A DNA stretch of 64,000 nt from Escherichia coli (lineage in GTDB: Bacteria; Pseudomonadota; Gammaproteobacteria; Enterobacterales; Enterobacteriaceae). Below, piece by piece: positions 8,721-55,505 of this stretch (the stretch's first letter is position 1; every line of letters begins with the position of its first letter). Location of the stretch: the NCBI RefSeq assembly GCF_024700885.2, contig NZ_CP117016.1; one strand, given 5' to 3'. Both the position numbers and the translations under genes were made by a program. The notes beneath the pieces were generated by a model that was not told the origin of the DNA, searched no databases, and saw nothing but the letters and a program-made list of their open reading frames with translations.

Positions 8721-8792
8721 GTAGTATGGACACAGGCCTAAGCGAGGTTCTGGTTTTCAAATTTTTCGGGAGTTAGATGATTGGAGGAACAG

Positions 8793-9158: not shown

Positions 9159-9239
9159 GAAAATATTATTCAGAACCTATGTGATTGTATCTTTATTTTT
9201 ACATACAACACATGGGCGCAGTGTAATAATATTATTATA

Positions 9240-9507: not shown

Positions 9508-9611
9508 GTATGTAAGGATAAACAAACATCGTGTGTGCTGATGGCAGAGTAGGTGGAGGACTCCAGACAGTCAAACGATAGAAAAAGATAGTCTTTATGG
9601 AGGTTCCTGCA

Positions 9612-10454
9612 ATGTCGAATACATACCAGAAAAGAAAGGCAAGTAAAGAGTATGGTTTATACAATCAATGTAAGAAACTAAATGATGATGAATTATTTCG
9701 CTTACTTGATAATCGCAATTCATTGAAAAGGATTTCATCTGCCAGAGTATTGCAGCTAAGAGGTGGGCAAGACGCTGTTAGATTGGCAATTGAATTCTGC
9801 GCTGACAAAAATTATATCCGTAGAGATATAGGAGCATTTATACTCGGGCAAATAAAAGTTTGCAAAAAATGCGAAGATAGCGTTTTTAATATTTTAAAAA
9901 AGATGGCACTGAATGATAAAAGTGCTTGCGTTCGAGCTACAGCAATCGAGTCAACTGCTCAGCGATGCAAGAAAAACCCAATTTATTCACCTAAAATAGT
10001 AGAACAATCTCAAATTACTGCTTTTGATAAATCGGCTAATGTCAGACGTGCTACGGCATTTGCTATTTCTGTTATCAATGATAAAGAAACAATTCCACTA
10101 TTGATTAATCTGTTAAAAGATCCAAATGGAGATGTCAGAAACTGGGCCGCATTTGCAATAAATATCAATAAATATGATAATAGTGATATTAGGGATTATT
10201 TTGTGGAGATGCTTCAGGATAAAAATGAGGAAGTCCGTATTGAAGCAATAATCGGACTTTCCTACAGAAAAGATAAAAGGGTTTTATCTGTTTTATGCGA
10301 TGAGTTAAAAAAAAATACTGTTTATGATGATATCATTGAAGCTGCGGGTGAATTAGGTGATAAAACGCTACTTCCTGTTTTAGATACTATGTTGTACAAG
10401 TTTGATGACAATGAAATTATAACTTCCGTTATTGATAAGCTGAAGCGTTCATAG
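9612..10454 (+). CDS. yibA: HEAT-repeat protein
   Basis: N-terminus MSNTYQKRKASKEYGLYNQ at the internal ATG 9612 matches recalled YibA; repeated D/N-x-x-VR-x-x-A HEAT-like units; lies between Rhs modules. Confidence 0.8.
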   Translation: MSNTYQKRKASKEYGLYNQCKKLNDDELFRLLDNRNSLKRISSARVLQLRGGQDAVRLAIEFCADKNYIRRDIGAFILGQIKVCKKCEDSVFNILKKMALNDKSACVRATAIESTAQRCKKNPIYSPKIVEQSQITAFDKSANVRRATAFAISVINDKETIPLLINLLKDPNGDVRNWAAFAININKYDNSDIRDYFVEMLQDKNEEVRIEAIIGLSYRKDKRVLSVLCDELKKNTVYDDIIEAAGELGDKTLLPVLDTMLYKFDDNEIITSVIDKLKRS

Positions 10455-10495
10455 CGTGAGTTGCCTATGCACAGTGAGGTATTCCCGCCGGCACG

Positions 10496-11305
10496 GTGCA
10501 GATGCTCGACCGGCTGGAAAGTGAAATCCTGGCTGACCGGGTGAGTGAGGAAAGCCGACGCTGGCTGGCATCGTGCGGCCTGACGGTGGCGCAGATGCAA
10601 AACCAGATGGACCCGGTGTACACGCCGGCGCGAAAAATCCACCTGTACCACTGCGACCATCGCGGCCTGCCGCTGGTGCTTATCAGCACGGAAGGGGCAA
10701 CAGAATGGTGCGCAGAATACGATGAGTGGGGCAACCTGCTGAATGAAGAGAACCCGCACCAGCTGCAGGGGCGGTATATCACTCAGGATCCGATTGGACT
10801 GAAGGGGGGATGGAATTTTTATCAGTATCCGTTGAATCCGATAACTGATATTGACCCGTTGGGATTAGCGACCTGTTTATACAGCATAACTTTAGGTATG
10901 CTTTCATGCGTTTCAGATACGCCAAGTGATGATAATTCTTATGGTGTGCTTACTATTTCAGTCGCCTCTGGTAATAATGGTAATAATATGCAATGTAAAA
11001 ATAATCCTGGTTGTACACACTTACAAAATAGAGGCCCAATACCTCCAGGGGTATGGAGCTGGAATGTTAATGGTCCTGGAGCAACTAATAGAAAACCTAA
11101 TGGTATACGTTTAGTACCGTCAGCAAATACAGAAACGTATAATCGTGATGGATTTTTAACACATAGTTGTTTAAACGCTTTTGGTCCATCTTTAGGACCT
11201 CGATTCTGTTCCGAGGGTTGTATAACTGGTTCATCTAATGACATGCAAAAATTAAATGAGCTAATATTTTCAGAGCCAGATAGCACATTAACAGTGACGG
11301 ACTAG
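10496..11305 (+). CDS. yibJ: orphan Rhs C-terminal fragment (3' core plus alternative toxin tip) with L,D-transpeptidase-like motif
   Basis: nt ~10472-10840 are near-identical to the rhsA 3' core (5616-6070) including [18 protein letters not shown]; the tip then diverges; tip contains H-S-x14-S-E-G-C-I-T (His codon 11162-11164, Cys codon 11219-11221); symbol is positional only. Confidence 0.7.
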
Positions 11306-11309
11306 AAAT

Positions 11310-11705
11310 ATGGCAAGGTTATTAACAATTGTGCTTTTTTTCTCTATTTCTGCGAATGCAGTTACTGTAAACCAATTTCAGAGAGAGTTGGATTTGGCAG
11401 ACAAGGCAATATTATGGGCACTAATATCAGCCAGTACCCAAGAGGGACGAAAAGCGTGTTCACTTAGCTATTTTTCATGTAAAGCCGCAGAGGCTGAACT
11501 CGGACTGGCATATATGGCTGCTAATGATAACAAGGCATTTCTCACATCCTTATCTAGAATAATGATGTACAAAATAGATGCTGGACTTTCCGAATCCTAT
11601 ACATGCTATTTATTAAGCAAGGGAAAGATCATAAGACCATATCTGAAGAATCTAAATCCACACCAACTTGTCGCTGATTGCATTGAAACTGTAAATAAAA
11701 GATAA
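11310..11705 (+). CDS. putative immunity protein for the orphan Rhs tip, secreted
   Basis: starts 4 nt after the yibJ stop; N-terminus MARLLTIVLFFSISANA is signal-peptide-like; AT-rich. Confidence 0.55.
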   Translation: MARLLTIVLFFSISANAVTVNQFQRELDLADKAILWALISASTQEGRKACSLSYFSCKAAEAELGLAYMAANDNKAFLTSLSRIMMYKIDAGLSESYTCYLLSKGKIIRPYLKNLNPHQLVADCIETVNKR

Positions 11706-12283
11706 AAATAAAAAAATCATTGATATAGATTCAGTTAATATTTGCAATGATAATAAAAATATAAATTGGAGAGTTAATAGTACTATTGTAGCCATTGATG
11801 ATTCTATAAAATGCATCGATGAATAATAACTTAATTATATTTAAAAATATATTAATGACTCACTCTCCAGGAGTTTTTTAACTTAGTGTTATAATGAATA
11901 CGATAATTAAAAGTGAAGAGAAAAATAGTTGTATACATATATTACATGAACCTACATTGTGATCTATAAATTAAATATTTTTAAATGTGACTGTCATCCT
12001 TCAGATAATAAAGCCATCATCGCAATAGATGGAAAAGCACTCCTGCTCTTTTTTGATTAGAGCCGTGGCAGAGGAACAACTCATATCATCATTGCGATCT
12101 CGACAATGTATGGTCTGATCCTTCGGCAGATCAAGACGGATAAAAAATCCAATGAGTTCACACTCATCCCGAACTTCTTAACATAATGGATATTAACGAA
12201 AAATCATCGCAGCCAATGAAGTAATATGCAAAAATAATTAGTCCTTACAGGGAGCAAAGTTCCATAATCTCCCCCTTCCCTAC

Positions 12284-36795: not shown

Positions 36796-37755
36796 TTGTT
36801 TCCATTTCGTCGTAACGTTCTTGCATTTGCCGCTCTGTTGGCGCTCTCCTCCCCCGTAATTGCTGGCAAGCTTGCCATCGTCATTGATGATTTTGGGTAT
36901 CGCCCGCACAACGAAAACCAGGTGCTGGCGATGCCTTCCGCTATCTCCGTCGCTGTATTACCCGATTCACCGCACGCCAGAGAGATGGCGACCAAAGCGC
37001 ATAACAGCGGTCACGAAGTGTTGATTCATCTACCGATGGCACCACTGAGTAAACAGCCGCTGGAGAAAAATACGCTACGCCCGGAGATGAGCAGCGACGA
37101 AATTGAGCGCATTATTCGTAGTGCGGTCAATAACGTGCCCTATGCCGTGGGGATCAACAACCACATGGGCAGCAAGATGACCTCTAACCTGTTTGGTATG
37201 CAGAAAGTGATGCAGGCGCTGGAGCGTTACAATCTTTACTTCCTCGACAGCGTAACCATCGGTAATACCCAGGCGATGCGCGCAGCGCAAGGCACTGGCG
37301 TGAAGGTGATCAAACGGAAAGTGTTCCTCGACGATTCGCAAAATGAAGCGGACATCCGTGTGCAATTCAATCGCGCAATTGACCTGGCACGTCGCAACGG
37401 TTCGACCATTGCCATTGGGCATCCTCACCCTTCAACGGTACGCGTGTTACAACAGATGGTTTATAACCTGCCGCCAGACATTACGCTGGTGAAAGCCAGC
37501 AGCTTGCTGAATGAACCGCAGGTTGATACGTCTACACCGCCGAAAAACACTGTGCCCGACACACCGCGTAATCCGTTCCGTGGCGTGAAGCTCTGCAAAC
37601 CGAAGAAACCGATAGAACCTGTTTATGCTAATCGCTTCTTTGAAGTATTAAGCGAAAGCATCAGCCAGAGCACGCTGATCGTTTACTTCCAGCATCAGTG
37701 GCAAGGCTGGGGCAAACAGCCTGAAGCGGCGAAGCTTAACGCTAGCGTAAATTAA
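36796..37755 (+). CDS. yibQ: divergent polysaccharide deacetylase-family protein
   Basis: 319-aa ORF with signal peptide; position after envC. Confidence 0.85.
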
Positions 37756-38776
37756 AGGCGCTACGCGTAATGCGATGGTGCGACCGCGTTTTGTCGCGCC
37801 ATTGCCATAAGCGGAAAGACCACAGTAACGCCTGATAACCCACCTTCACGCTGCGCACATTGGTAATCAGGCGCTTATACATACCGGAAGTAAATATCTC
37901 GGCAATCATCCGTTGGCGGGTAATAATATCCGGCTCTTTGCGCACCGCATGGCAAACACGCAATGCTTCGTAAGTTATTTGCTGATGAAATTCCGGATAA
38001 ATCGTAATTTTGTCGGCATAATTTCGATTTAATTTCTCTAGCAGGCGGGTAATCTTAATATAGTGACGTTGATAATTAAGGTTTTTATTCCCTTGTCTGT
38101 TCAACCGACTCACTGACGTATTATGCAGATAATATTTATATAACGATTGCTCGGTATATCGCGCACGCAGCGCGTTAAACATGAATTCTGTTGTCCAGAC
38201 AATATCCTGATGATGTAATCCGGCAATAAATTTAATGTTATTTTTTACAATAACATCGCGGCGATAAATCCCCATCCAGACAACGTGAGTCCAACGGCGG
38301 GAAGAAAGCCCCATCCGCAACCAATCCGGGCCGGTTAATACGCCGGTTGAGCGAAGGCGATCGGTGGGGATGGATTGCCAGGTTTCTCCCGTTTCACGAA
38401 AACACCAGTCAGCGTTGCACTGCGCCACGTCGAGGTCGTCCTCTAACGCCATGGTCATCAGCGTTTCGTACATGGTGGGATACACCTCATCGTCAGCATC
38501 GACAAAAGCGACATATTTGCCCGTCGCCGCCTCGATCCCACGATTACGCGCCACCGATGCGCCAGCATTCGCCTGATGCAACAAACGAACGTGCGGATAG
38601 TTTTCTGCGTAATGCTTTGCTATTTCAACAGAATTATCCGTTGAACCATCGTTAATAATAATGATTTCCAGAGCAGTCCAGGTTTGCGTAATTAAAGATT
38701 CCATACACGTGCGGAAATCATCGCCCGCATTATATAACGGGATAATAACACTAAGTTTATTGGTGCTGTTCATCAT
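37742..38776 (-). CDS. waaH: family-2 glycosyltransferase
   Basis: 344-aa [24 protein letters not shown] with DxD motif region (VDADD); formerly yibD. Confidence 0.85.
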
Positions 38777-40049: not shown

Positions 40050-41246
40050 TCAGGCGATAACGCCCAGTTGTTTACCAATACGCGTGAATGCTTCTACTGC
40101 ACGCGTAATTTGCTCAGGGGTATGCGCCGCAGACATCTGGGTACGAATACGCGCCTGACCTTTCGGAACGACCGGATAGAAGAAACCGGTGACGTAAATC
40201 CCCTCTTTTTGCAGCTCACGAGCAAATTTCTGCGCTACTACCGCATCGCCAAGCATGACCGGAATAATGGCGTGATCGGCTCCCGCCAGGGTAAAGCCCG
40301 CCGCCGACATTTGCTCACGGAACTGACGCGCGTTCGCCCACAGACGGTCACGCAGCTCGCTACCCGCTTCGACCATCTCCAGCACTTTGATGGAAGCGGC
40401 AACAATGGCCGGTGCCAGCGAGTTGGAGAACAGGTACGGACGAGAACGCTGGCGCAGCCACTCAACCACTTCTTTGCGCGCCGCGGTATAACCACCAGAA
40501 GCCCCGCCCAGCGCTTTACCAAGCGTACCGGTGATAATATCGACCCGGCCCATCACATCGCAGTATTCATGGGAACCACGACCATTTTCACCGACAAAAC
40601 CGACCGCGTGGGAGTCGTCTACCATCACCAGGGCATCGTATTTATCTGCCAGATCGCAAACGCCCTTCAGGTTGGCAATCACGCCGTCCATTGAGAACAC
40701 ACCATCGGTGGCAATCAGCACATGACGCGCACCGGCTTCACGCGCTTCTTTCAGACGTGCTTCCAGCTCCTGCATATCGTTGTTGGCATAACGATAGCGT
40801 TTAGCTTTGCACAGACGCACACCATCAATAATAGACGCGTGGTTCAGTGCGTCGGAGATAATGGCGTCTTCCGCGCCCAACAGCGTTTCGAACAGGCCAC
40901 CGTTAGCATCAAAGCAGGAAGAGTAGAGAATCGCATCTTCCATCCCCAGGAAGGCCGCCAGTTTTTGTTCAAGCTCTTTATGGCTGTCCTGAGTGCCGCA
41001 AATAAAACGCACCGAAGCCATGCCGAAACCGTGAGAATCCATTCCCGCCTTTGCCGCCGCAATCAGATCCGGATGATTCGCCAGTCCGAGATAGTTATTG
41101 GCACAAAAGTTAATGACGTGGCTTCCATCAGCCACAGTGATATCTGCTTGCTGCGCAGACGTAATAATGCGCTCTTCTTTAAACAACCCTTCCGCCCGTG
41201 CGGTTTCCAGATCGTTGGTTAACTGCTGATAAAATTCTCCACGCAT
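40050..41246 (-). CDS. kbl: 2-amino-3-ketobutyrate CoA ligase
   Basis: 398-aa [39 protein letters not shown]-dependent family. Confidence 0.96.
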
Positions 41247-41459
41247 TGCGATTCTCCAGACAGGGCAAATTCCAGCACATATTACCCAAACTTATAGGTC
41301 GCGACGAGATGACGCGTTAACACTTCTGCAAAATTCAGGATAAATAACGTCCATCAATCTCACTTTTGGCGAATGGCTGAAGCCAACGCCGTGTAGTGAT
41401 ATGATAGAAGCATTCGTGTCTGAGATTGTCTCTGACTCCATAATTCGAAGGTTACAGTT

Positions 41460-42392
41460 ATGATCATCGTTACCGGCGGCGCGGGCTTTATCGGCAGCAA
41501 CATCGTTAAAGCCCTGAATGACAAAGGCATCACCGATATTCTGGTGGTGGATAACCTGAAAGACGGCACCAAGTTTGTGAACCTGGTGGATCTGGATATC
41601 GCGGACTATATGGATAAGGAAGACTTCCTGATCCAGATTATGGCTGGCGAAGAGTTCGGCGATGTCGAAGCGATTTTCCACGAAGGTGCGTGCTCTTCCA
41701 CCACCGAGTGGGACGGCAAGTATATGATGGATAACAACTATCAATACTCCAAAGAGCTGCTGCACTACTGCCTGGAGCGCGAAATCCCGTTCCTGTACGC
41801 TTCTTCTGCAGCCACTTACGGCGGTCGCACCTCCGACTTTATTGAATCCCGCGAATATGAAAAACCGTTGAATGTCTACGGTTACTCAAAATTCCTGTTT
41901 GATGAATATGTTCGCCAAATCCTGCCGGAAGCCAACTCGCAGATTGTTGGCTTCCGCTATTTCAACGTTTATGGACCGCGTGAAGGCCATAAAGGCAGCA
42001 TGGCGAGCGTCGCTTTCCATCTCAACACTCAGCTTAACAACGGTGAATCACCGAAGCTGTTCGAAGGTAGCGAGAACTTCAAACGTGACTTCGTCTATGT
42101 GGGCGACGTGGCAGATGTAAACCTGTGGTTCCTGGAAAATGGCGTTTCCGGCATCTTCAACCTCGGTACTGGTCGTGCGGAATCCTTCCAGGCGGTAGCC
42201 GATGCAACGCTTGCTTATCACAAGAAAGGCCAGATCGAATACATTCCGTTCCCGGATAAACTGAAAGGCCGCTATCAGGCGTTCACGCAGGCAGATCTGA
42301 CGAATCTGCGCGCGGCGGGTTATGACAAACCGTTCAAAACCGTTGCCGAAGGCGTAACGGAATATATGGCCTGGCTGAATCGCGACGCATAA
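41460..42392 (+). CDS. hldD: ADP-L-glycero-D-manno-heptose 6-epimerase
   Basis: 310-aa [26 protein letters not shown]; formerly rfaD. Confidence 0.96.
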
Positions 42393-42401
42393 GAGCTCTG
42401 C

Positions 42402-43448
42402 ATGAAAATACTGGTGATCGGCCCGTCTTGGGTTGGCGACATGATGATGTCGCAAAGTCTCTATCGCACGCTCCAGGCGCGCTATCCCCAGGCGATAATC
42501 GATGTGATGGCACCGGCATGGTGCCGTCCATTATTATCGCGGATGCCGGAAGTTAACGAAGCTATCCCTATGCCTCTCGGTCACGGAGCGCTGGAAATCG
42601 GCGAACGCCGCAAACTGGGTCATAGCCTGCGTGAAAAGCGCTACGACCGCGCCTACATCTTACCCAACTCCTTCAAATCTGCATTAGTGCCTTTCTTCGC
42701 GGGTATTCCTCATCGCACCGGCTGGCGCGGCGAGATGCGCTACGGTTTACTCAACGATGTACGTGTGCTCGATAAAGAAGCCTGGCCGCTAATGGTGGAA
42801 CGCTATGTCGCGCTGGCCTATGACAAAGGCGTTATGCGCACAGCACAAGATCTGCCGCAACCATTGTTATGGCCGCAGTTGCAGGTGAGCGAAGGTGAAA
42901 AATCATATACCTGTAATCAATTTTCGCTTTCATCAGAACGTCCGATGATTGGCTTTTGCCCGGGTGCGGAGTTTGGTCCGGCAAAACGCTGGCCACACTA
43001 CCACTATGCAGAACTGGCAAAGCAACTGATTGATGAAGGTTATCAGGTGGTTCTGTTTGGCTCGGCGAAAGATCATGAAGCGGGCAATGAGATTCTTGCC
43101 GCTTTAAATACCGAGCAGCAGGCATGGTGCCGGAACCTGGCAGGGGAAACACAGCTTGATCAAGCGGTTATCCTGATTGCAGCCTGTAAAGCCATTGTCA
43201 CTAACGATTCTGGCCTGATGCACGTTGCGGCGGCGCTCAATCGTCCGCTGGTTGCCTTGTATGGTCCGAGTAGCCCGGACTTCACACCGCCGCTATCCCA
43301 TAAAGCACGCGTGATCCGCCTGATTACCGGCTATCACAAAGTGCGTAAAGGTGACGCTGCGGAGGGTTATCACCAGAGCTTGATCGACATTACTCCCCAG
43401 CGCGTACTGGAAGAACTCAACGCGCTATTGTTACAAGAGGAAACCTGA
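42402..43448 (+). CDS. waaF: LPS heptosyltransferase II
   Basis: 348-aa ORF MKILVIGPSWVGDMMMSQSLYRTL. Confidence 0.95.
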   Translation: MKILVIGPSWVGDMMMSQSLYRTLQARYPQAIIDVMAPAWCRPLLSRMPEVNEAIPMPLGHGALEIGERRKLGHSLREKRYDRAYILPNSFKSALVPFFAGIPHRTGWRGEMRYGLLNDVRVLDKEAWPLMVERYVALAYDKGVMRTAQDLPQPLLWPQLQVSEGEKSYTCNQFSLSSERPMIGFCPGAEFGPAKRWPHYHYAELAKQLIDEGYQVVLFGSAKDHEAGNEILAALNTEQQAWCRNLAGETQLDQAVILIAACKAIVTNDSGLMHVAAALNRPLVALYGPSSPDFTPPLSHKARVIRLITGYHKVRKGDAAEGYHQSLIDITPQRVLEELNALLLQEET

Positions 43449-43451
43449 CGG

Positions 43452-44411
43452 ATGCGGGTTTTGATCGTTAAAACATCGTCGATGGGCGATGTTCTCCATA
43501 CGCTGCCCGCACTCACTGATGCCCAGCAGGCAATCCCAGGGATTAAGTTTGACTGGGTGGTGGAAGAAGGGTTCGCACAGATTCCTTCCTGGCACGCCGC
43601 CGTTGAGCGAGTTATTCCTGTGGCAATACGTCGCTGGCGTAAAGCCTGGTTCTCGGCCCCCATAAAAGCTGAACGGAAAGCGTTTCGTGAAGCGCTACAA
43701 GCAGAGAACTATGACGCAGTTATCGACGCTCAGGGGCTGGTAAAAAGCGCGGCGCTGGTGACGCGTCTGGCGCATGGCGTAAAGCATGGAATGGACTGGC
43801 AAACCGCTCGCGAACCTTTAGCCAGCCTGTTTTACAATCGTAAGCATCATATTGCAAAACAGCAGCACGCCGTAGAACGCACCCGCGAACTGTTTGCCAA
43901 AAGTCTGGGCTATAGCAAACCGCAAACCCAGGGCGATTATGCTATTGCACAGCATTTCTTGACGAACCTGCCTACAGATGCTGGCGAATATGCCGTATTT
44001 CTTCATGCGACGACCCGTGATGATAAACACTGGCCGGAAGAACACTGGCGAGATTTGATTGGTTTACTGGCAGATTCAGGAATACGGATTAAACTTCCGT
44101 GGGGCGCGCCGCATGAGGAAGAACGGGCGAAACGACTGGCGGAAGGATTTGCTTATGTTGAAGTATTGCCGAAGATGAGTCTGGAAGGCGTTGCCCGCGT
44201 GCTGGCTGGGGCTAAATTTGTAGTGTCGGTGGATACGGGGTTAAGCCATTTAACGGCGGCACTGGATAGACCGAATATCACGGTTTATGGACCAACCGAT
44301 CCGGGATTAATTGGCGGATATGGGAAGAATCAGGTGGTTTGTAGGGCTCCGCTAATGAATTTAAATAATTTAGAAGCAGCGGCTGTTTATAAAAAAATCA
44401 CATTAATTTAA
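43452..44411 (+). CDS. waaC: LPS heptosyltransferase I
   Basis: 319-aa ORF MRVLIVKTSSMGDVLHTLPALTDA. Confidence 0.95.
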   Translation: MRVLIVKTSSMGDVLHTLPALTDAQQAIPGIKFDWVVEEGFAQIPSWHAAVERVIPVAIRRWRKAWFSAPIKAERKAFREALQAENYDAVIDAQGLVKSAALVTRLAHGVKHGMDWQTAREPLASLFYNRKHHIAKQQHAVERTRELFAKSLGYSKPQTQGDYAIAQHFLTNLPTDAGEYAVFLHATTRDDKHWPEEHWRDLIGLLADSGIRIKLPWGAPHEEERAKRLAEGFAYVEVLPKMSLEGVARVLAGAKFVVSVDTGLSHLTAALDRPNITVYGPTDPGLIGGYGKNQVVCRAPLMNLNNLEAAAVYKKITLI

Positions 44412-44458
44412 TAAATAGTAAGTGGGCATTATACCCACTTACTTAGTCAACGCTTTTA

Positions 44459-45712
44459 TTATTGTGGTTCATTTTTACTCAAAAACGATATAGACAGGAA
44501 GAGGCACACAATCCACGATGCCGGTATTGGTTTAGCATGTGTAATGACATCACTAATGCCAAATAACATAATAGAAGCAGGGAAAACCAAGAGTATATAT
44601 TTTTTCTCTCGTATACAGTAATAGATCATTGCAACATAGAACATAATAAGAACAAGAAGACCAATTTTTCCTTTCGTGGAAAGAGATTCCACAATTTCGT
44701 TATGCATATGTACATCAAGGAATAATAAAGCTCCACTATAAATATTATTTTCTGCACTTAATGCTTTTATCTTTTCAGCACGCTGCTCAAGAGATTGCCA
44801 ATTAAAACCATCAGGACTTCCTTTAATTCCTGCATTAACCATTGCAAAACGTGCTCCGACCGAGGATTGACTGTTATTTTTTGTAGCATATGAAATAACA
44901 TCAGCTTTTAATGAATTAATTCGCCTATCAATTTCCTTATTAAATATCAAACCACAAGCAAGTAGCAATATAAAAACACCACTCAATCCTTTAAATAAAA
45001 ACACTTTTTGATCACGATGCTGAAGAAATAATATGACCATAATCATAAGTGGGAATGTGAAAATTGCCGCACGCGTTCCTGTCATCATTACTGCTGCAAA
45101 GCTTAAAGCAAAGTTAGCATAAAATAGAAACCATTTATATTTCGATTGCATTTTTATGAATACAATTGAAGAATATAAAGTTGTAAATGTAATCACATAA
45201 GCCGCAATAGTCGCTGCCCCCATCTGACCAATATTCCCATTCATGGCGGAGAGGGGAATGCGGTCTGCATGCAAATATATCCCTTGATAATATGCTCTAC
45301 ATAGCATGATTATTTGAACTAAGATAGCTGAAATAAAATGTAGTTTTTCATTTTGCCTGAATTTATTTTTACTTAGTAATAAAAATGTCAACGAGCTAAA
45401 TACTAATAGTTTTCCAGACTCAAGGTAGCCTCGATAAGCATTTCTATATACTACATCTTCTGTTTTATAAAATTCATACCATATAAGGTTCATTGCACCC
45501 AAAAGAAGTAAACCAAGAATTAATATAATGACATTTTTATTATAATTGTGCTTTTTATTTACAATTAATAAGAAAAGAGAAAATGCACCTGTCGCATTAA
45601 TTATTTTAGTGGTGATATTAAGATCAATTGGCACAAACAACAAACCGATTAAATACAATAAAAAAATAAAATTACAGCTATTATTTCGAAATTGCTCAAT
45701 TTTTACTTCCAC
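44459..45712 (-). CDS. waaL: O-antigen ligase
   Basis: 417-aa polytopic membrane ORF, AT-rich; position at the end of the waa outer-core operon. Confidence 0.85.
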   Translation of the reverse strand: MEVKIEQFRNNSCNFIFLLYLIGLLFVPIDLNITTKIINATGAFSLFLLIVNKKHNYNKNVIILILGLLLLGAMNLIWYEFYKTEDVVYRNAYRGYLESGKLLVFSSLTFLLLSKNKFRQNEKLHFISAILVQIIMLCRAYYQGIYLHADRIPLSAMNGNIGQMGAATIAAYVITFTTLYSSIVFIKMQSKYKWFLFYANFALSFAAVMMTGTRAAIFTFPLMIMVILFLQHRDQKVFLFKGLSGVFILLLACGLIFNKEIDRRINSLKADVISYATKNNSQSSVGARFAMVNAGIKGSPDGFNWQSLEQRAEKIKALSAENNIYSGALLFLDVHMHNEIVESLSTKGKIGLLVLIMFYVAMIYYCIREKKYILLVFPASIMLFGISDVITHAKPIPASWIVCLFLSISFLSKNEPQ

Positions 45713-45746
45713 GTTAATATCTCACAACAAATTGAAATTAACAATC

Positions 45747-46520
45747 TCATTTCAAAAGAGAAAAAAAAGCCACCTTTATCCAGGAGCGTATAAACTTCAT
45801 TCTTTTCTGAAGCCTTGTTCTAGGTTGTTTTTTTTCCGATGTTAATAGCCTTTCACTTTCAAGATGACTATTAAACTCATTTAAAATAGGATGTAATATT
45901 ATTTCGTCTAAATAAAACTCTTTTATAATATTATGTTGATGCATTAACTTCCAGCTATCAGCTCGATAGGTGCCATAATCCTTTGTCAATTTGAGCAACT
46001 TTTGTGCCATATCTTTATTCATCAAATATGAACATGTACGACGAATTTTATTTTTATTGAAATTAACACGCCGAAAAGTACAAGTACTTACCTTAACTTT
46101 ACTAAAAAGGCTTTGCCCCAATACCGGATAATCATGTAATCCTTTCTGTCCTCCAAGCAAATACAAATTATTATGTTTTAACTTGTCTTTTTCAGGAAGA
46201 TTAAAATATTGCAGAAATTTTTTAAATTTCTCATTGACGATAACATCATCCTCGAGAATGACTGCCCATTCTATATTTTTATCTATCATATCCTTATATA
46301 TAAGCTGATGACTTAATGTACAAGCAATTTCTCCATCAGTCATTTCTGCGCCGACACCACTTAATCTCATTTTATCAATAATTTCTTTATTTTGAGGGTC
46401 TTTAGCATCTATGGCATCAAAAAAATCAAAATTAATATTTAATCGATGAAAAACATCATTTATTTTATTTCTTCGCTCAATATCTCTTTTAAGTGAGACA
46501 ATATAAATGGGCAGGTTCAT
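45747..46520 (-). CDS. waaV: LPS outer-core beta-glycosyltransferase (GT25-like)
   Basis: 257-aa ORF MNLPIYIVSLKRDIERRNKINDVF; position between waaW and waaL as in R1 (waaV) or R4 (waaX) core types; symbol uncertain. Confidence 0.5.
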   Translation of the reverse strand: MNLPIYIVSLKRDIERRNKINDVFHRLNINFDFFDAIDAKDPQNKEIIDKMRLSGVGAEMTDGEIACTLSHQLIYKDMIDKNIEWAVILEDDVIVNEKFKKFLQYFNLPEKDKLKHNNLYLLGGQKGLHDYPVLGQSLFSKVKVSTCTFRRVNFNKNKIRRTCSYLMNKDMAQKLLKLTKDYGTYRADSWKLMHQHNIIKEFYLDEIILHPILNEFNSHLESERLLTSEKKQPRTRLQKRMKFIRSWIKVAFFSLLK

Positions 46521-46551
46521 TAAAAAATCTCTGGGTGATTAATCTTAATAA

Positions 46552-47580
46552 TTATTTGGAAAAATGCTTACGCGCTATTTTCTTACTATAATAGAGCATG
46601 AAATAGTAAAATGAAGATGCAATATTACCATTTCTTTTCAAATGTCCGGATTTCACTTGATACTGCTTTTCATTCGTGGCTGGAATAAACGCCACATCAT
46701 TCCAGCAAGAAGCCTGATAAGCCTCATTAAAATACTTCTGGCAGGGATAATTCGTCCAGTCGTTCCAGGGCTTCGTTACGCCAACATAATGAATCAGCTT
46801 AGTATCATCGGTAATGGTCTTTTTATAATCTTCATCGCTTTTATTTTTTAACTCATAGTCAATGCCATAAAAGCAATCATAATCGCCGCTAATAAAAATA
46901 CAATGACCAAAGAACAGAATATTTAAAATATCCTGATCAAGGCATTTATACTTCGTATGCTGCGGGTCACTTGCCAGCATAGCAATGGCTTTATTCATAA
47001 AATCATTTTTCGCCCATGCTTCAAGCTGCAGATATACTACACCGGCGTTGAAATAATTACCTGGAAGTCCCTCTATAGCCAGACGCTTCGCTGGTTTTTC
47101 CTGCATAAAAGGCACATCTTTAATAACAGCTGCGAACTTATCGCCATCAAAATTAATATCAAGCAATCCAGCTAATGAGCCTTTACAGATGACATCAGCA
47201 TCGATATATAACAGATTTTCAATAACTTCACTCAGATACTGGAACGCAACTAAACGGAAGAATGTTGCATAAGACCACTGTTTCAGGCTGGGGAAGATAT
47301 CAATAAAGGCACTGGAGACTTTATAAATTCTTACTTCAACGTTAGCATTTTTGCTAGTAAAAGCGTTAACACGTTGTAGATAATCTTCATCAATGTAGTC
47401 GGTAAAGAGATGAAACTTAACCGCAAGGTCCGGGTTATGCATAATAACTGATTGCATAGATACTGCCGCACCAAATAAAAAGTTGCGGTCAATACCGTAA
47501 GCGATATTTAACACACGATCGGTGTTAGTAATTTTCCCAGAGACAGTGACTTCAGTAATACTCTCAGCTAATAAATCCAT
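46552..47580 (-). CDS. waaW: LPS outer-core GT8 glycosyltransferase
   Basis: 342-aa ORF with GT8 features (NIAYGIDRNF; DxD at YIDADV); one of three GT8 paralogs in the locus. Confidence 0.65.
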   Translation of the reverse strand: MDLLAESITEVTVSGKITNTDRVLNIAYGIDRNFLFGAAVSMQSVIMHNPDLAVKFHLFTDYIDEDYLQRVNAFTSKNANVEVRIYKVSSAFIDIFPSLKQWSYATFFRLVAFQYLSEVIENLLYIDADVICKGSLAGLLDINFDGDKFAAVIKDVPFMQEKPAKRLAIEGLPGNYFNAGVVYLQLEAWAKNDFMNKAIAMLASDPQHTKYKCLDQDILNILFFGHCIFISGDYDCFYGIDYELKNKSDEDYKKTITDDTKLIHYVGVTKPWNDWTNYPCQKYFNEAYQASCWNDVAFIPATNEKQYQVKSGHLKRNGNIASSFYYFMLYYSKKIARKHFSK

Positions 47581-47605
47581 GTTGGTTCCGTTTTGACTGT
47601 GTGGT

Positions 47606-48298
47606 TTACGCTTTGCCTTTTAATTTTTTAATAAATTTGCGTAGTTTGGTTCTGTAGATTACTGAATAGTAGCCATAATCTTTTATTTCGTTGGCAATAC
47701 CCAGGTGACGTTCCATGGCCAGACGATCACGAGCTTTACGCTCTGCCGTACAGCTTTTACCGGATAGGTCAATTATCCTGACACCATCTTTACTAACGAT
47801 AAAGTTACCCCGGTGTGGGTCGCCCGATAGCATATTTAAGGCATGCAATTTTTCCATTGAAGCCTTAATTTCTGCTTTAACATTTTCTGGAATAATCGGC
47901 ATATCATTGAGCTCTACGCCCTCGACATACTCGATAAGCATGATAAAAACACTGGCATAGTTGAAAAATTTACGCTCAGCCAGAAAATAAAAATCATTAG
48001 GAAAAGTAAGACCTGCACTTCTGACACGATCGGTTTCAACGATCAAATTCTGATAGTAGTCACCTTTTACAAAAGATTTAAAAAAACGTTCATTCCTTTT
48101 CGTTTTCGGAGCAAAGACTTTAAAAACATAGCGACCATATTTCGTATCAATCAACGATACTTTGGTATCATCAATATTACGTAATACTTTTACTGTTTTA
48201 AAATTATAGGCCAGTATTTCATCAAAGATTTCTTTATATTTATTATCATTATCTTTGTAATAAAATGAGAAGCCGCGATAACGTATACTTGTAATCAT
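47606..48298 (-). CDS. waaY: LPS core heptose II kinase
   Basis: 230-aa kinase-like ORF (MITSIRYRGFSFYYKDNDNKYKEIF) lying between GT8 genes. Confidence 0.8.
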   Translation of the reverse strand: MITSIRYRGFSFYYKDNDNKYKEIFDEILAYNFKTVKVLRNIDDTKVSLIDTKYGRYVFKVFAPKTKRNERFFKSFVKGDYYQNLIVETDRVRSAGLTFPNDFYFLAERKFFNYASVFIMLIEYVEGVELNDMPIIPENVKAEIKASMEKLHALNMLSGDPHRGNFIVSKDGVRIIDLSGKSCTAERKARDRLAMERHLGIANEIKDYGYYSVIYRTKLRKFIKKLKGKA

Positions 48299-48307
48299 AA
48301 GAGTAAT

Positions 48308-49303
48308 TTATTTCTTAAGCTTGTACTTAATTAATGAAGTTATGCCTTTTATATACTCACCATGGGCAAACAGATGCTTATATTGTTTCTGCATTTCTGC
48401 AACAGTCCGCGCCTCTTTAAGAGGATATTTCTTCCAGGGAGATTGTTCACGCGCGATATTAAAGTATGATGCAGACGGATATCCAGCCCAGCTATGCCAT
48501 GGTTTAGTTATCCCTGTATAGTGAATCAACACTGTTTTATCGGTAATGGTTTGCTGATACTTTCGATGACTACGATCATAAAGTTCGTTTTTCAGGGTAT
48601 AAATAGTATCAAAATCCTTCGCAAGGTAGATATTATTCATATTAAATGCGATATTCAACGCATCCTGATCTAAATATTTAAGAGAGCCATATTTAGTTTC
48701 CCCTCGTAAAAGTTTGAGTAAATACGGTGTCAAATTTGCTTCATGCCATTTTTTAAGATTGACATAGATAACGCCTGCATTGAAATAACGTCCATTCATT
48801 TCGGGAATGTTGAGGCGTTTTGCACATGCCGCCTGAGTACTATCATTGTCAGGAATGACCGCAGCAAACTCATCTTTAAATATAATTTCTGTGAGAGGTT
48901 TCAGGCTTCCTTTACAAACAACATCGGCATCCAGATACAGCAGTGTGGAAATACTTTCACTCAGATATTCAAAAGACAATACCCTGAAGTATGTCGCGTA
49001 CGACCAAAACTGTGACGTCGGCAGATCAGCAAAGTATTTGGGGTCAATTAAATATACAATAATTGAGGTATTAAATTGTTTTGCTGTTTCATTAAATGAC
49101 TTTAAATAATCATCATCCACATAATCAGTGAAAACATGAAAGACAAAATTAATATCTGAATTATTAATCAAAACGGAAGAAATTGAAACGCCAGCACCAT
49201 ACAAAAAATTCTTATCGATACCGTAGGAAACATTTAGCTCTGGGGCGTTTTCTTTTTTATTATCTGCTAAATACGAAAACCGTTCTTTTATAAATTCATT
49301 CAT
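48308..49303 (-). CDS. waaT: LPS outer-core GT8 glycosyltransferase
   Basis: 331-aa GT8 ORF (NVSYGIDKNF; YLDADV); position between waaO and waaY. Confidence 0.65.
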   Translation of the reverse strand: MNEFIKERFSYLADNKKENAPELNVSYGIDKNFLYGAGVSISSVLINNSDINFVFHVFTDYVDDDYLKSFNETAKQFNTSIIVYLIDPKYFADLPTSQFWSYATYFRVLSFEYLSESISTLLYLDADVVCKGSLKPLTEIIFKDEFAAVIPDNDSTQAACAKRLNIPEMNGRYFNAGVIYVNLKKWHEANLTPYLLKLLRGETKYGSLKYLDQDALNIAFNMNNIYLAKDFDTIYTLKNELYDRSHRKYQQTITDKTVLIHYTGITKPWHSWAGYPSASYFNIAREQSPWKKYPLKEARTVAEMQKQYKHLFAHGEYIKGITSLIKYKLKK

Positions 49304-49319
49304 TTAACTTTTCTCAATT

Positions 49320-50336
49320 TCATTTTATTATCTTTAAATAAAAATAATAAATATAATTCATTATCCCGTTAATTGGTTTATTTTGTTTAAAATTATGCTT
49401 GGCGCAATAACGAGCATAGTTTGAGTTAACTGGCCGCATTAACGGTTCATTTTTCCAGGGCGATGCTTCTTTGGCTTTGATAAAAGGTTGCGCACTTGGA
49501 TAACCGGCCCAGTAATGCCAGGGTTTTGTCGGGCCGACATAATGAATTAATACGGTTTCATCATTAATTGGACAAACAAATGATTTTTTTAATTCATAAT
49601 TTAAACTAAATTGCGTATTGTATTTAGCATCAATGAATTTAACTTTCCCTAACAGGATAAGATTAAGGATATCTTGATCCATATAGGTTAAACGGGAAAC
49701 GATGGCTTTATCAGCAAGCATCGACATCGCTTTAGCAGAAACGGACTCCTGCGCCCACGCTAGTGTATTAATTAACAGGACACCTGAATTAAAGTAACCC
49801 TTTTCAAGTTCATTACACTGCAGACTTTGACCCCGTAACGACCACCAGTTAGCATCGCGTTCAGTAACAACAGCAGCAACGTTATTGGCAAGATCCATTG
49901 TTATCAGCGGCTTTAAGTTTCCCTGACAGGCGATATCAGCATCCAGGTAAAGGATCTTATCTTGTTGATCAATAAAGTAATCTGCAATTACAAAACGGAA
50001 ATACATGGCAATAGACCAATTTTTGGTCGTCGGTAATGCCTTAAGCCGTTCACAATTTACTAGATGGATCTGGATACAGGTACGATAGCTTTTCGCCAAT
50101 TGGGCTAAACGCTGGATATCGGCTTCAGGGATAGCATCAATAAAAACGTGGAAAACAAAACTCACGTCGTTGTTATGTAACAAAACTGACGTGATTGAAA
50201 CACCACAACCAAAAAGAAAGTTTTTATCAATGCCATAAGAAACATGGAATGATGATGCCACTGACGCCGCTGGCCTTTCATCGAAGATGATTGTCTTATT
50301 GATCATCTCTTGTGGATTAAAATAGTGGGCACTCAT
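49320..50336 (-). CDS. waaO: LPS outer-core GT8 glycosyltransferase
   Basis: 338-aa GT8 ORF (HVSYGIDKNF; YLDADI); position next to waaP. Confidence 0.7.
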   Translation of the reverse strand: MSAHYFNPQEMINKTIIFDERPAASVASSFHVSYGIDKNFLFGCGVSITSVLLHNNDVSFVFHVFIDAIPEADIQRLAQLAKSYRTCIQIHLVNCERLKALPTTKNWSIAMYFRFVIADYFIDQQDKILYLDADIACQGNLKPLITMDLANNVAAVVTERDANWWSLRGQSLQCNELEKGYFNSGVLLINTLAWAQESVSAKAMSMLADKAIVSRLTYMDQDILNLILLGKVKFIDAKYNTQFSLNYELKKSFVCPINDETVLIHYVGPTKPWHYWAGYPSAQPFIKAKEASPWKNEPLMRPVNSNYARYCAKHNFKQNKPINGIMNYIYYFYLKIIK

Positions 50337-50351
50337 ATTTCTCTCCGGAAA

Positions 50352-51149
50352 TTACAACGATTTTCTAATCGTTCTTTCCCTGATTTTTGTGGCTTTTGCT
50401 TCTGCTTGCGACAGCAGCCCTTGTTCCTGCTTGAGAATGTCTTTAAGCGGGGCGACAAAATACTCTTTCATAAACCGCCAGATATCCCGCTGAGTCAGGC
50501 TAATATTCATCGAAGAAAAATAAAGCCCTATAAGATCTTTATCGCGCCAACGACGTGGAACGCGCGTGCGAAGCTGCGCCCGGTGCAGGTCAATTACCGA
50601 AATTTTTAACTCCTCTTCCTTACCGGAAAAAGGCAAGTGCAGCAGGAAATGACAGATATAACAGTCACGGTGGTTAATGCCCGCAGCATGCATATCGCGC
50701 ACCATCGTCGCGACACGCTTAATAAGCATACGCTTTACGCGAACATCTGGAGGGTTAGTCGCCCAGTCAGCACAGTAATCTTCCAGACTTATGGTTGGTG
50801 TCAGATCTTCGGTAATAATAAATGAAGTTCTGGTAAGCGGATTCATGCCTTTTTCGCCAAATGCCACCCCATACATAGTATCAACGCCGACATCCCGCAG
50901 TCGATGAATCGCATTCCATTCGCGGTCTGCGCCTAATACTGGCATCCGCAATGAGAGTAAATTTTTGATTATCTCTTTCAGGGTCGTGCCGCGATGCCAT
51001 TTGAGAAAATAGCTTTTGCCCGCCATTTCAAAGCGCAGAGTGCGGCGAGTTTCCAGTTCACGAAAAACCTCACCCTGCAAGGTTTTAACTTCCTCAAAAG
51101 GATCTTTACCACGCCATAACGTGGCAAACGGCTCTTTAAGTTCAACCAT
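50352..51149 (-). CDS. waaP: LPS core heptose I kinase
   Basis: start at internal Met ([22 protein letters not shown]) gives 265 aa; the track ORF extends 3 codons further upstream. Confidence 0.9.
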
Positions 51150-52266
51150 CCAGACCACCCGTTATGATATCCGCCGCTTTTTCTGGCAGACTGTATAAAT
51201 CTTGTGTATCAGCATAATGTCGCGCATTTTCCGCCCAGGCCTGGCGCAATGAAGATTGCGTTAACGCTTTGCGTAAAATCTCATTCAATGTTTCCTGGCG
51301 GAATGGCTCAGCAATAGCCTCGCCGCAATTGGCGTCAACAATATAATGCGCATAGCCACAAACGGCTGTCGTTAGTACCGGTAATCCTGCAGTAATCGCT
51401 TCCAGCAGCACAATTCCCGCCGCTTCCTGGTAGGCAGGATGCAGTAATAAATCCGCCGCCGCCATTAATTCCGAGACATCGTTGCGCCCCGAGAAGAAGT
51501 GAACATTACTGCGCACGCCGCGTTTTTCTGCCAGCGCCTCAAATTTTCGCGGTTTATCCTGCCCAACAACATATAGCAATGTGTTGTGGCGCAGCGAATC
51601 CGGTAACGAAGCAAGTGCTTCAATGGAACGATCGACACCTTTACGCGTGAAGTCTGAACCGACCTGCAACAATAAATATTGTTGTTCGGTTATTCCATTC
51701 TTCTTACGGAAGATTTCACGGCTATTAGCTGGCTGCTGGCTATATTTACGATCAGGATAAATCCCCGGTGGCAGAATATGAAAACGCTCCGCTTCAGTCT
51801 GATAATGTTTCTGGAAATCGGCGATTTGCTTATCTGTCAGCATCAGCAGCTGTGTCGGCTTGCCCTGTTCGAAGGTTGCCCGCTCAAAGGCGGCATAATG
51901 GCGATAACGTGACGTCAAGCGATAGAAAAAGCCTTTTTCCTGCGCTACTTTCTCGGCATAACAAACATCAGCGGCATAATAAACGTCCAGCCCCGGCATT
52001 TTGTTGAATCCAACGACTTTATCGACGGGATGTTCGCGTAAATGTTTTTGCACCCAGGCAAAATACTCCGCATTGCGCCCGTGATTGGTATGCGATTTAA
52101 CCGGCACTTTGATCAGTTCAAATACATCAGGGCATTCGCCTTCCCACGACTGGGTATAAACCCGAACATGATGACCTCGGGCGGCGACTGTCTGAGCAAT
52201 ACGCATAAAATCGCGCTGCAAACCGCCAAAGGGAAAATATTTATATAAACAAAAAGCAACGATCAT
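51142..52266 (-). CDS. waaG: LPS core glucosyltransferase I
   Basis: 374-aa [29 protein letters not shown]4 family. Confidence 0.95.
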
Positions 52267-53321
52267 AACGACGTACCTGTCGTGGAGGAGGGCAGTAATT
52301 TATCGACAGCAGCAATGACATCTGCCGCCGGAATAACCGAAAGATACATCTCATTTCGGTCACGCTGATCGCGCGTTGGCATTTCCCGGTAATCTCCCGC
52401 CCAGAATTGAATCATGTTATTTGACCAGGGACGCCAGAAAATATGGTCTGTCGCACCAAACAGCGATATCAGCGGCGTATTAACTGCAGCGGCAATATGC
52501 GCCGGTGCGGAATCAACGCCAATAAACAGCTGCGCATGATCGATTAACGCACCAAGTTCCGGGAAGGTCACCTTTCCGGCCAGCGCCGTTACTGGTGGCG
52601 TCTGGCATCCCTGGGCAATTTCATTGACGCAGGCCAGATCGTCTTTATCTGGGCCGGACGTCAGAACGACTTCATAACCACGCGCATGTAAGGCATCAAT
52701 CACAGCGGAAAACTTGGCGTTGTCCCAGCATTTGAAGATTTGCCGCGCCGTAGGTTGGATAACCACATAATTTTGTCCAACACCAGCGTGATCAAGTTCG
52801 CGACGCATACGTTTCCAACTTGCAGGCGGGTAACTCATGGTTGTCTGCTTCACCAACGAATCAAGTCCCAATGGTGTCAGCACGGATAAGTTACTTTCCA
52901 CCACATTTCCACCCTGCAACGGCACCAAATGGGTGAAACTTTTACGCCAAAAAGCAGACTGCCGATGATGATAATCCTGGGAAATTTTCACACGGGCATT
53001 TAATAAGCGAACCAGTATAGCAACCATCCATTGATCGGTAAGATTAACGATAAGGTCATACTTATTGGCACGTAATACCTTGATGAGATGAAAAAAGTTG
53101 GAAATTTTTTCTGCGGCTTTTGCTTTTTTATTTTTTATGCCGTAGAGCGCGTTAATCTCTGGATTTTCAGACAGGATCGGGATGGTGTCCTGATAAAGCA
53201 GCACATCGATTTTTGCGTCAGGGTAATTTTTTTTCAGCGAACTAATGACGGGAGTAGTTAATAACATATCCCCATGAAAACGCATCTTAATGAGCAAAAT
53301 TCTTCGAAATGGCTTATCCAC
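52263..53321 (-). CDS. waaQ: LPS heptosyltransferase III
   Basis: 352-aa ORF with heptosyltransferase-family features; first gene of the outer-core operon; exact start uncertain. Confidence 0.88.
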   Translation of the reverse strand: MDKPFRRILLIKMRFHGDMLLTTPVISSLKKNYPDAKIDVLLYQDTIPILSENPEINALYGIKNKKAKAAEKISNFFHLIKVLRANKYDLIVNLTDQWMVAILVRLLNARVKISQDYHHRQSAFWRKSFTHLVPLQGGNVVESNLSVLTPLGLDSLVKQTTMSYPPASWKRMRRELDHAGVGQNYVVIQPTARQIFKCWDNAKFSAVIDALHARGYEVVLTSGPDKDDLACVNEIAQGCQTPPVTALAGKVTFPELGALIDHAQLFIGVDSAPAHIAAAVNTPLISLFGATDHIFWRPWSNNMIQFWAGDYREMPTRDQRDRNEMYLSVIPAADVIAAVDKLLPSSTTGTSL

Positions 53322-53370
53322 AAGTAACTCTTTTTGTTGAGATTATCCGATTAAGGTGAAGCAGAAAAAG

Positions 53371-53382
53371 CACGCTACCGCC
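53371..53382 (-). promoter_or_regulatory. ops element (RfaH recruitment site) in the waaQ operon leader
   Basis: plus strand cacgctaccgcc is the reverse complement of GGCGGTAGCGTG, about 50 nt upstream of the waaQ start on the minus strand. Confidence 0.75.
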
Positions 53383-53733
53383 CCAGGCTCAACAGCTACC
53401 TGAATACTGATACCGCACTGATATTGACGCGCTAGTGTATCACTTCTTTCGCGGCAATCCGACCCGAATGATTTTTAAGCACATTGTTGATTTTCAATAA
53501 AGAAATCAATCAAATAAAATCATTAGCAACCATATTCTTTCACTGTTGCTCTGCGATTCCTTCCTGCACGTACTGCAGAAATCAATGAATCGCATAAAAA
53601 TACAAAAAAAGTATAGATGTTCAGCAAGAATTGGCGGGTAAATTGCTATTTAAGTCAAAAACGGGAAAAGTAATGGTAAAGCCACAGCTAAATACATAGA
53701 ATCCCCAGCACATCCATAAGTCAGCTATTTACT

Positions 53734-55498
<1,765 letters not shown>

Positions 55499-55505
55499 CG
55501 TTTAT

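Follow-up and report, generated by a model that had tools for sequence, protein, structure and literature searches.

Which LPS core type is encoded at positions 44,459 to 53,321 of this stretch of Escherichia coli DNA (the window, 64,000 nucleotides in all)? The core type has a bearing on the phages and antimicrobial peptides able to act on a strain and on the O antigens that can be joined to its core, and therefore being able to call the locus R4, and not R1, is useful for describing a strain with this segment, which is identical to that of E. coli MLI114, an isolate from human stool in Mali annotated with the same gene set. An earlier note on this DNA had recognized an outer-core locus of the R1 or R4 type and leaned towards R1; I will argue here that the region almost certainly holds the waaQ operon, the central one of the E. 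coli waa (rfa) locus, in an R4 core-type version. The R4 locus is already known biology, reportedly described in 1998 in the R1/R4 work of Heinrichs, and R4 is routinely typed in silico, and the value of the result is one of annotation only, with no new biology.

Layout, composition and leader of the operon

Nine intact ORFs follow one another on the minus strand, bounded by the GTG start of waaQ, the first gene, at 53,321 and by the stop codon of the ligase gene, the last, at 44,459. Counted from waaQ, the ORF list gives lengths of 352, 374, 268 (265 from the annotated ATG), 338, 331, 230, 342, 257 and 417 aa, and the Pfam and NCBIfam assignments run in the same order as GT9/RfaQ, GT4, a Kdo/WaaP kinase, two proteins with GT8 plus GT8C, the WaaY kinase, a third GT8 plus GT8C protein, GT25 and Wzy_C/O-antigen ligase, with the three GT8 genes broken up by the waaY kinase gene. 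The order is thereby read as waaQ-waaG-waaP-waaO-waaT-waaY-waaW-waaX-waaL, and the annotation of the identical genome agrees. This bears out the earlier claim, judged now on ORFs, families and the annotation of MG1655, that the arrangement is of the R1/R4 type and not that of K-12; the K-12 order given there (S-B-R-J-Y-Z-U) was slightly off, the annotated one being S-B-O-J-Y-Z-U, and the conclusion that the two differ stands.

The AT-richness noticed earlier for the outer-core genes and waaL relative to waaQGP is also found gene by gene (G+C of 0.30-0.38 versus 0.47-0.48), the values being 0.469 for waaQ, 0.483 for waaG and 0.469 for waaP, then 0.381 for waaO, 0.354 for waaT, 0.352 for waaY, 0.374 for waaW, 0.301 for the GT25 gene and 0.317 for waaL, in a window that has 0.491 as a whole.

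Both neighbouring operons lie on the plus strand, as read from the ORFs and from the annotation of the identical genome: rfaD-rfaF-rfaC (41,460-44,411) converges on the waaQ operon, and waaA-coaD (53,734-55,498), for a Kdo transferase and phosphopantetheine adenylyltransferase, diverges from it. The products of rfaD-rfaF-rfaC, a heptose epimerase and heptosyltransferases II and I, make the inner core that serves the waaQ operon as substrate. A gap of 47 bp separates the stop codons of waaL and rfaC, which converge, and holds a terminator-like hairpin of 12 pairs (44,417-44,443, minus strand). It is the one structure found by a consensus scan, against an expectation of 0.2 from shuffled sequences, and could function for both operons.

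The leader of waaQ carries a JUMPstart element (53,371-53,409, minus strand) that scores 55.2 bits over the full Rfam model RF01707, for which the gathering score is 35 (E 6.4e-10). Inside it, on the coding strand and 50 nt before waaQ begins, the ops sequence GGCGGTAGCGTG can be read directly at 53,382-53,371; it has the GGCGGTAGnnT form used to recognize an ops of the RfaH type and is the predicted RfaH loading site. Overlapping this region, 53,365-53,419 (minus strand) is 98% identical (54 of 55 positions by blastn-short) to the K-12 small RNA rirA, which MG1655 has annotated in its own waaQ leader. I claim no promoter for waaQ, because matches in a consensus scan of the leader were no more frequent than in shuffles.

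Products of the nine genes and a proposed route of assembly

The three proximal genes encode familiar enzymes. The first, waaQ or rfaQ (52,263-53,321), specifies LPS core heptosyltransferase III (Pfam GT9, E 6.1e-69; the NCBIfam RfaQ equivalog at 713 bits with a cutoff of 467) and is named rfaQ in the annotation of the identical genome. It overlaps by 4 nt with waaG (51,142-52,266), the gene for the GT4 glucosyltransferase I that adds the first outer-core glucose onto HepII (Glycos_transf_1, E 2.4e-40; 90% amino acid identity to K-12 WaaG; also annotated as waaG), which in turn overlaps by 8 nt with waaP or rfaP (50,352-51,149 with the ATG of the annotation, and reaching a GTG at 51,158 in the mechanical ORF). 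WaaP is the heptose(I) kinase (Kdo/WaaP, E 2.9e-75; RfaP equivalog at 479 bits, cutoff 170) and shares 83% identity with K-12 WaaP.

Four outer-core genes follow. The product of waaO (49,320-50,336) is a GT8 alpha-1,3-hexosyltransferase for the second outer-core hexose (GT8, E 2.6e-80, plus GT8C; NCBIfam NF011718 at 610 bits, cutoff 461; 50% identity to K-12 WaaO), and the sources differ on its sugar, the NCBIfam name being 3-alpha-galactosyltransferase and the K-12 homologue being annotated as a glucosyltransferase. WaaT (48,308-49,303), a GT8 alpha-1,2-hexosyltransferase (GT8, E 1.2e-72, plus GT8C), has the UniRef representative Q9ZIS6 for its exact sequence, named 'UDP-glucose/galactose:(glucosyl)LPS alpha-1,2-glucosyl/galactosyltransferase', and its accession WP_001001720.1 is also annotated in an R1 genome. 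The heptose(II) kinase gene waaY or rfaY (47,606-48,298) is recognized by Pfam WaaY (E 2.6e-129) and by the RfaY equivalog (400 bits, cutoff 248). The third GT8 gene, waaW (46,552-47,580; GT8, E 2.3e-71, plus GT8C), belongs to a cluster whose members are called WaaW or alpha1,2-galactosyltransferase, and encodes a minor allele, found on only 7 contigs, that is identical to the common cluster member at 335 of 342 residues (98%).

Immediately upstream of waaL lies waaX (45,747-46,520), the R4-defining gene for a GT25 beta-galactosyltransferase (PF01755, E 1.9e-51, the profile covering residues 4-186), whose exact sequence leads to the UniRef representative Q9ZIS2, a 'Beta-1,4-galactosyltransferase'. 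The presence of waaX serves as the R4 criterion in PMC13293308 and PMC11237799, and the literature is divided on the linkage that it forms, beta-1,4 according to PMC13293308 and the UniRef name versus beta-1,3 on GlcII according to PMC3526765. WaaX is distant from the bacterial GT25 proteins of solved structure (8xc8 and 8xlz), aligning with them over the N-terminal 100 residues only at an E value of about 1e-13, in an alignment that includes the acidic 'EDD' motif; acceptor, donor-sugar and linkage specificity are not deducible from the protein sequence.

The operon closes with waaL (44,459-45,712), the R4 allele of the O-antigen (surface polymer:lipid A-core) ligase, found in a cluster named 'Lipid A-core surface polymer ligase WaaL'. 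Its Wzy_C match of 31.5 bits falls 0.2 below the gathering cutoff of 31.7; among solved structures, WaaL 7TPG is a match at E 5.5e-08, in an alignment that takes in the H-x-HN-(E/D)-IVE...G..GL stretch and its conserved His, and identity to K-12 WaaL is 30.5% (E 1e-42).

From homology and the established pathway (the work of Heinrichs and Whitfield as summarised in PMC3526765 and PMC13293308, together with general background), one may propose how these products would act together. A single long RfaH-dependent transcript would start upstream of ops, and the acceptor would be Kdo2-lipid A carrying HepI and HepII, built by WaaA, WaaC and WaaF of the flanking operons. WaaG would then place glucose I onto HepII, with WaaP phosphorylating HepI, WaaQ adding HepIII and WaaY phosphorylating HepII; WaaO would add hexose II in alpha-1,3 linkage, WaaT and WaaW two alpha-1,2-linked galactoses, and WaaX a beta-linked galactose as side branch. 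That one residue would be the distinction between R4 and R1, beta-galactose by WaaX versus beta-glucose by WaaV of R1. Once exported to the periplasmic face, the finished core would receive undecaprenyl-PP-linked O antigen from the R4-specific WaaL.

Core typing, the R4 cassette and rival readings

Typing in silico, one of the checks proposed earlier, gave the R4 amplicon only. Of the primers listed in Table 2 of PMC13293308, R4-F matches exactly at 46,332-46,350 (plus strand) within waaX and R1R4-R, whose site is common to R1 and R4, matches exactly at 46,692-46,711 (minus strand) within waaW, for a product of 380 bp that is the published R4 size, and sites for the R1-F, R2, R3 and K-12 primers were absent from the window at up to 4 mismatches. 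The R1 strain FREC5, run as a positive control, yielded the published 842-bp R1 product. Alignment of the window to FREC5 by blastn locates the difference precisely, with 41,000-44,351 aligned at 97.8% and 46,623-55,500 at 99.0%, and between them an R4-specific cassette (44,352-46,622) for which blastn finds nothing similar in the R1 locus of that strain. It is made up of waaL and waaX together with the 3'-terminal ~60 nt of rfaC on one side and the 3'-terminal ~70 nt of waaW on the other.

One rival is the R1 core type itself (waaQ-G-P-O-T-Y-W-V-L), the type met most often in extraintestinal pathogenic E. coli (ExPEC). In its favour, everything from waaQ to almost the end of waaW, seven genes out of nine, is ~99% identical in DNA to an R1 genome, and the order is the same but for one gene. 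The remaining two genes tell otherwise: the one before waaL encodes a 257-aa GT25 and not a 327-aa GT2, with no similarity between WaaX and the R1 WaaV by BLASTP and no GT2 gene anywhere in the locus, the ligases are only 35% identical, and the R1-F site that gives a product in the control is missing here. That the locus is R1 after all is therefore close to inconceivable, and the comparison of WaaV and WaaX suggested in the earlier note settles the matter for R4, the exact sequence standing under Q9ZIS2. The earlier lean towards R1 and ExPEC also drew on a UpaG-like adhesin, and this part does not hold. Adhesin presence is uninformative on ExPEC because homologues of this trimeric autotransporter gene occur in 4,158 of 5,426 E. 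coli genomes (77%), many of them annotated ehaG and including O157:H7, ETEC and environmental strains; I have accordingly rejected it as an ExPEC marker, and the result, for a window identical to that of a stool isolate, corrects the inference that the region indicates an extraintestinal pathogenic lineage. In published surveys R4 is enriched in phylogroups D, F and G and makes up only 7.9% of UPEC.

A second rival accepts the R4 genes and supposes a hybrid or non-canonical locus, such as an R1/R4 chimaera like ECOR46 or one in which a divergent WaaW alters the outer core, so that the LPS would not be textbook R4. Hybrid waa loci do exist (ECOR46 for R1/R4, and R2/K-12 hybrids; PMC13293308), and the WaaW allele is both rare and different from the common one at 7 residues; however, these substitutions are scattered and leave the 'DAD' motif region (YIDADV) unchanged, every gene in the window is single-copy and intact in the canonical order with no insertion sequence, the identical genome has a single R4 cassette, and the same full-length arrangement is present in 690 genomes. 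I consider a hybrid very unlikely, and I likewise give little credence to the thought that the rare WaaW allele or another strain-specific feature leads to a modified R4 outer core, or that the breakpoints in rfaC and waaW form a recurrent site of R1/R4 switching by recombination.

The canonical R4 reading agrees with how the cassette is distributed. Among 5,426 complete E. coli genomes, waaL and waaX occur as one block in 690 (12.7%) and 1,833 (33.8%) have the R1 cassette, against published frequencies of 12.3% for R4 and 35.4% for R1. A plasmid-borne R4 cassette was also considered and rejected, the three or four 'plasmid' matches being records of 3-10 kb or a 4.9-Mb plasmid-labelled record, most likely chromosome fragments. 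An outer-core/ligase module acquired and exchanged by recombination would be in keeping with the low G+C from waaO through waaL and with the sharp breaks that fall in rfaC and waaW, at the 3' end of each.

Comparison with the known core types

K-12 shares with this locus its chromosomal position between rfaD-F-C and waaA-coaD, the genes waaQ, waaG and waaP (73-90% amino acid identity) and the JUMPstart/rirA leader (98%). In MG1655 the annotated order is waaQ-G-P-S-B-O-J-Y-Z-U, and waaL sits on the other strand as the closing gene of the rfaD-waaF-waaC operon; identity to the K-12 counterparts is only 30-53% for the outer-core GT8 enzymes, for WaaY and for WaaL. A BLAST comparison with K-12 matched none of the nine proteins to WaaS, WaaB, WaaZ or WaaU, and K-12 offers no homologue of the GT25 protein. 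A K-12 core type is rejected on the gene content, on the place of waaL outside the rfaD operon and on the missing primer sites, and the R2 and R3 types are rejected on their own missing primer sites. O157:H7 genomes, in a group (EHEC) published as 97.9% R3, match the locus at the DNA level only in waaQGP, or 34% of the query. Best matches to K-12, R2 or R3 enzymes, which the earlier note had named as speaking against its reading, are consequently not what was found.

R1 (prototype F470, waaQGPOTYWVL) shares the operon architecture, with waaL closing the waaQ operon in both, and differs by the swap of the 2.3-kb cassette that brings GT25 WaaX in place of GT2 WaaV, a difference with the published effect of a beta-glucose side branch in R1 and a beta-galactose one in R4 (PMC3526765). 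Against the R4 assignment the window holds no contradicting sequence feature. The R4 prototype (strain F2513, waaQGPOTYWXL), to which the tie rests on the UniRef name and accession (Q9ZIS2) and the published primers, agrees with the present locus in all nine genes, in their order and in their orientation, and apart from the minor allele of WaaW nothing of substance separates the two.

The waaQ operon and its annotation

On the minus strand of the window, positions 44459-53321 hold nine successive open reading frames, separated by at most about 35 nt and with two short overlaps, which in transcription order encode proteins of 352, 374, 268 (265 from the annotated ATG), 338, 331, 230, 342, 257 and 417 aa. 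Profile searches name these, in the same order, WaaQ (GT9; RfaQ equivalog, 713 bits), WaaG (GT4), WaaP (Kdo/WaaP kinase; RfaP equivalog, 479 bits), WaaO (49320-50336, minus strand; GT8 and GT8C, with NF011718 at 610 bits exceeding its cutoff), WaaT (GT8 and GT8C), WaaY (WaaY kinase, 400 bits), WaaW (46552-47580, minus strand; GT8 and GT8C), WaaX (GT25, E = 1.9e-51) and WaaL (44459-45712, minus strand; Wzy_C/O-antigen ligase). Both the gene families and the coordinates in the earlier note are matched exactly, and its description of the outer-core genes and waaL as AT-rich agrees with a per-gene GC of 0.30-0.38 in the six distal genes, against 0.47-0.48 in waaQGP and 0.49 in the window.

In the 59,321 bases compared, the window is identical (0 mismatches) to chromosome NZ_CP117013.1 of E. 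coli MLI114, from human stool in Mali. The RefSeq annotation there gives the identical set of nine genes, with the rfaD-rfaF-rfaC operon converging on it from one side and the waaA-coaD operon diverging from it on the other. A further lipopolysaccharide (LPS) inner-core modifier lies apart from the three waa operons, 2.7 kb left of rfaD: waaH (yibD; 37742-38776, minus strand), whose annotated product is UDP-glucuronate:LPS(HepIII) glycosyltransferase. WaaL scores 31.5 bits against Pfam Wzy_C, 0.2 short of the gathering cutoff of 31.7 bits, and hits none of the NCBIfam models, so that strict-threshold domain annotation would overlook it; its similarity to K-12 WaaL and to the solved WaaL 7TPG is nevertheless clear. 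Between the WaaW allele and the common cluster member, 7 of 342 residues differ, and the allele is found on only 7 contigs; for this reason RefSeq calls it only 'glycosyltransferase family 8 protein' and not alpha1,2-galactosyltransferase.

Distinguishing R4 from R1

With the typing primers of Trofimova et al. 2025 (PMC13293308, Table 2), R4-F matches exactly at 46332-46350 and R1R4-R, common to both core types, at 46692-46711. Their product is 380 bp long, as published for R4; the R1-F, R2, R3 and K-12 primers have no site in the window with up to 4 mismatches allowed; as a control, the locus of the R1 strain FREC5 yields the published 842-bp R1 product (PMC13293308). The exact 257-aa WaaX sequence is listed in the protein collection under the UniRef representative Q9ZIS2, 'Beta-1,4-galactosyltransferase', the activity also given for waaX in PMC13293308, and the presence of waaX has been used to call R4 as that of waaV to call R1 (PMC11237799).

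When the whole interval was compared by megablast with 5,426 complete E. coli genomes, these fell into three classes: 690 carry all of it, a larger class matches only query positions 2192-8863 (waaW to waaQ), and in the remaining genomes the match is limited to waaQGP. In FREC5, an example of the second class, the place of the window's GT25 gene and ligase is taken by a GT2 protein of 327 aa and another ligase. By blastn the breakpoints are 44351/44352 and 46622/46623, which fall within the final ~60 nt of rfaC and the final ~70 nt of waaW, respectively. Between these, blastn of the two loci detects no DNA similarity; at the protein level the GT25 protein is unrelated to the GT2 protein, and the two ligases share 35% identity. 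The cassette at 44352-46622 occurs in 690/5,426 genomes (12.7%) and the R1 cassette in 1,833/5,426 (33.8%), beside published frequencies among 4,505 genomes of 12.3% for R4 and 35.4% for R1.

Three independent lines, the typing primers, the identity of waaX and the cassette frequency, name this version R4. The R1/R4-type order recognized in the earlier note was therefore right and can be narrowed to R4, and its proposed comparison of WaaV with WaaX is decided for WaaX. Matches to 44352-46622 (waaL, waaX or waaW) also occur in the plasmid-labelled records NZ_CP070033.1, NZ_CP034391.1, NZ_CP059911.1 and NZ_CP134663.1; these are non-mobilizable fragments of 3-10 kb or, in one case, a record of 4.9 Mb, and they look like pieces of a chromosome, or a chromosome labelled as plasmid by mistake, not a plasmid-borne R4 cassette.

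The earlier note had also leaned toward R1 and an extraintestinal pathogenic (ExPEC) background on the strength of a UpaG-like adhesin. The gene at 20218-25947 (plus strand) does encode a 1,909-aa trimeric autotransporter adhesin, with an ESPR signal, YadA head, stalk and anchor (10 YadA-head and 16 stalk repeats), but homologues at 80-95% identity, often annotated ehaG, are present in 4,158/5,426 genomes (77%), including O157:H7, ETEC, animal and environmental strains, and for that reason it is no pointer to ExPEC. Copies at >=99% identity are found in 25 genomes only, the repeat region evidently being highly variable among lineages. In published data R4 is linked to phylogroups D (60.9%), F (51.4%) and G (84.9%), and its share of UPEC is only 7.9%; the R1/ExPEC lean is unsupported. 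Elsewhere in the window, at 2368-11800 (plus strand), there is a 1,395-aa RHS element core protein (DUF6531, RHS repeats, RHS core), after which MLI114 has a string of orphaned rhs fragments, a gene with a tlde1 domain and several immunity-protein genes (NTF2-fold, Imm57), frameshifted or intact; the whole is a toxin/immunity graveyard of the kind typical of rhs loci, adjoining yibF and yibA.

Leader and proposed core pathway

A full-length JUMPstart element lies on the coding strand at 53371-53409 (Rfam; 55.2 bits, gathering score 35), with the ops sequence GGCGGTAGCGTG inside it, 50 nt 5' of the waaQ start; the K-12 leader, from which the small RNA rirA is annotated, shares 98% identity with this stretch. 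RfaH acts by antitermination at JUMPstart/ops operons, and by analogy the leader predicts antitermination-dependent expression of this long operon. Consensus promoter matches in the leader are no commoner than in shuffles and single out no waaQ promoter. At the other end, waaL and rfaC converge with 47 bp between their stop codons, and a 12-pair hairpin sits within this gap.

Judged by homology and by what is established about core assembly, WaaG would transfer glucose I onto the inner-core HepII, with WaaP phosphorylating HepI, WaaQ adding HepIII and WaaY phosphorylating HepII; WaaO would extend the main chain by hexose II, followed by two alpha-1,2 galactoses from WaaT and WaaW, and WaaX would attach the beta-galactose side branch, which is what separates R4 from R1 (PMC3526765), before WaaL would ligate O antigen in the periplasm. 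The WaaX alignment with solved GT25 proteins runs through an acidic 'EDD' motif, and that of WaaL with the solved ligase 7TPG spans a conserved His-containing periplasmic stretch. Donor and linkage specificity cannot be read from sequence, and the sources differ on the WaaX linkage itself, which is given as beta-1,4 (PMC13293308; also the Q9ZIS2 name) or as beta-1,3 Gal on GlcII (PMC3526765). NCBIfam and PGAP name WaaO 'lipopolysaccharide 3-alpha-galactosyltransferase'; it is 50% identical to K-12 WaaO, but the K-12 protein is annotated as an alpha-1,3-glucosyltransferase, and in R1/R4 strains the automated name may misstate the donor sugar.

Comparison with the K-12 and O157:H7 loci

In the K-12 strain MG1655 the annotated order is waaQ-G-P-S-B-O-J-Y-Z-U, with waaL on the other strand within the rfaD operon. 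The window's WaaQ, WaaG and WaaP proteins are 73-90% identical to those of K-12, whereas its other proteins match K-12 WaaO, WaaJ, WaaY and WaaL at only 30-53% identity and WaaX has no K-12 homologue; by megablast, the part shared with O157:H7 genomes is waaQGP only, and O157:H7 belongs to EHEC, published as 97.9% R3. The outcome that the earlier note had named as refuting its reading, best hits to K-12, R2 or R3 core enzymes, is therefore not what is seen, and the waaQ operon here is a textbook R4 locus, already known.
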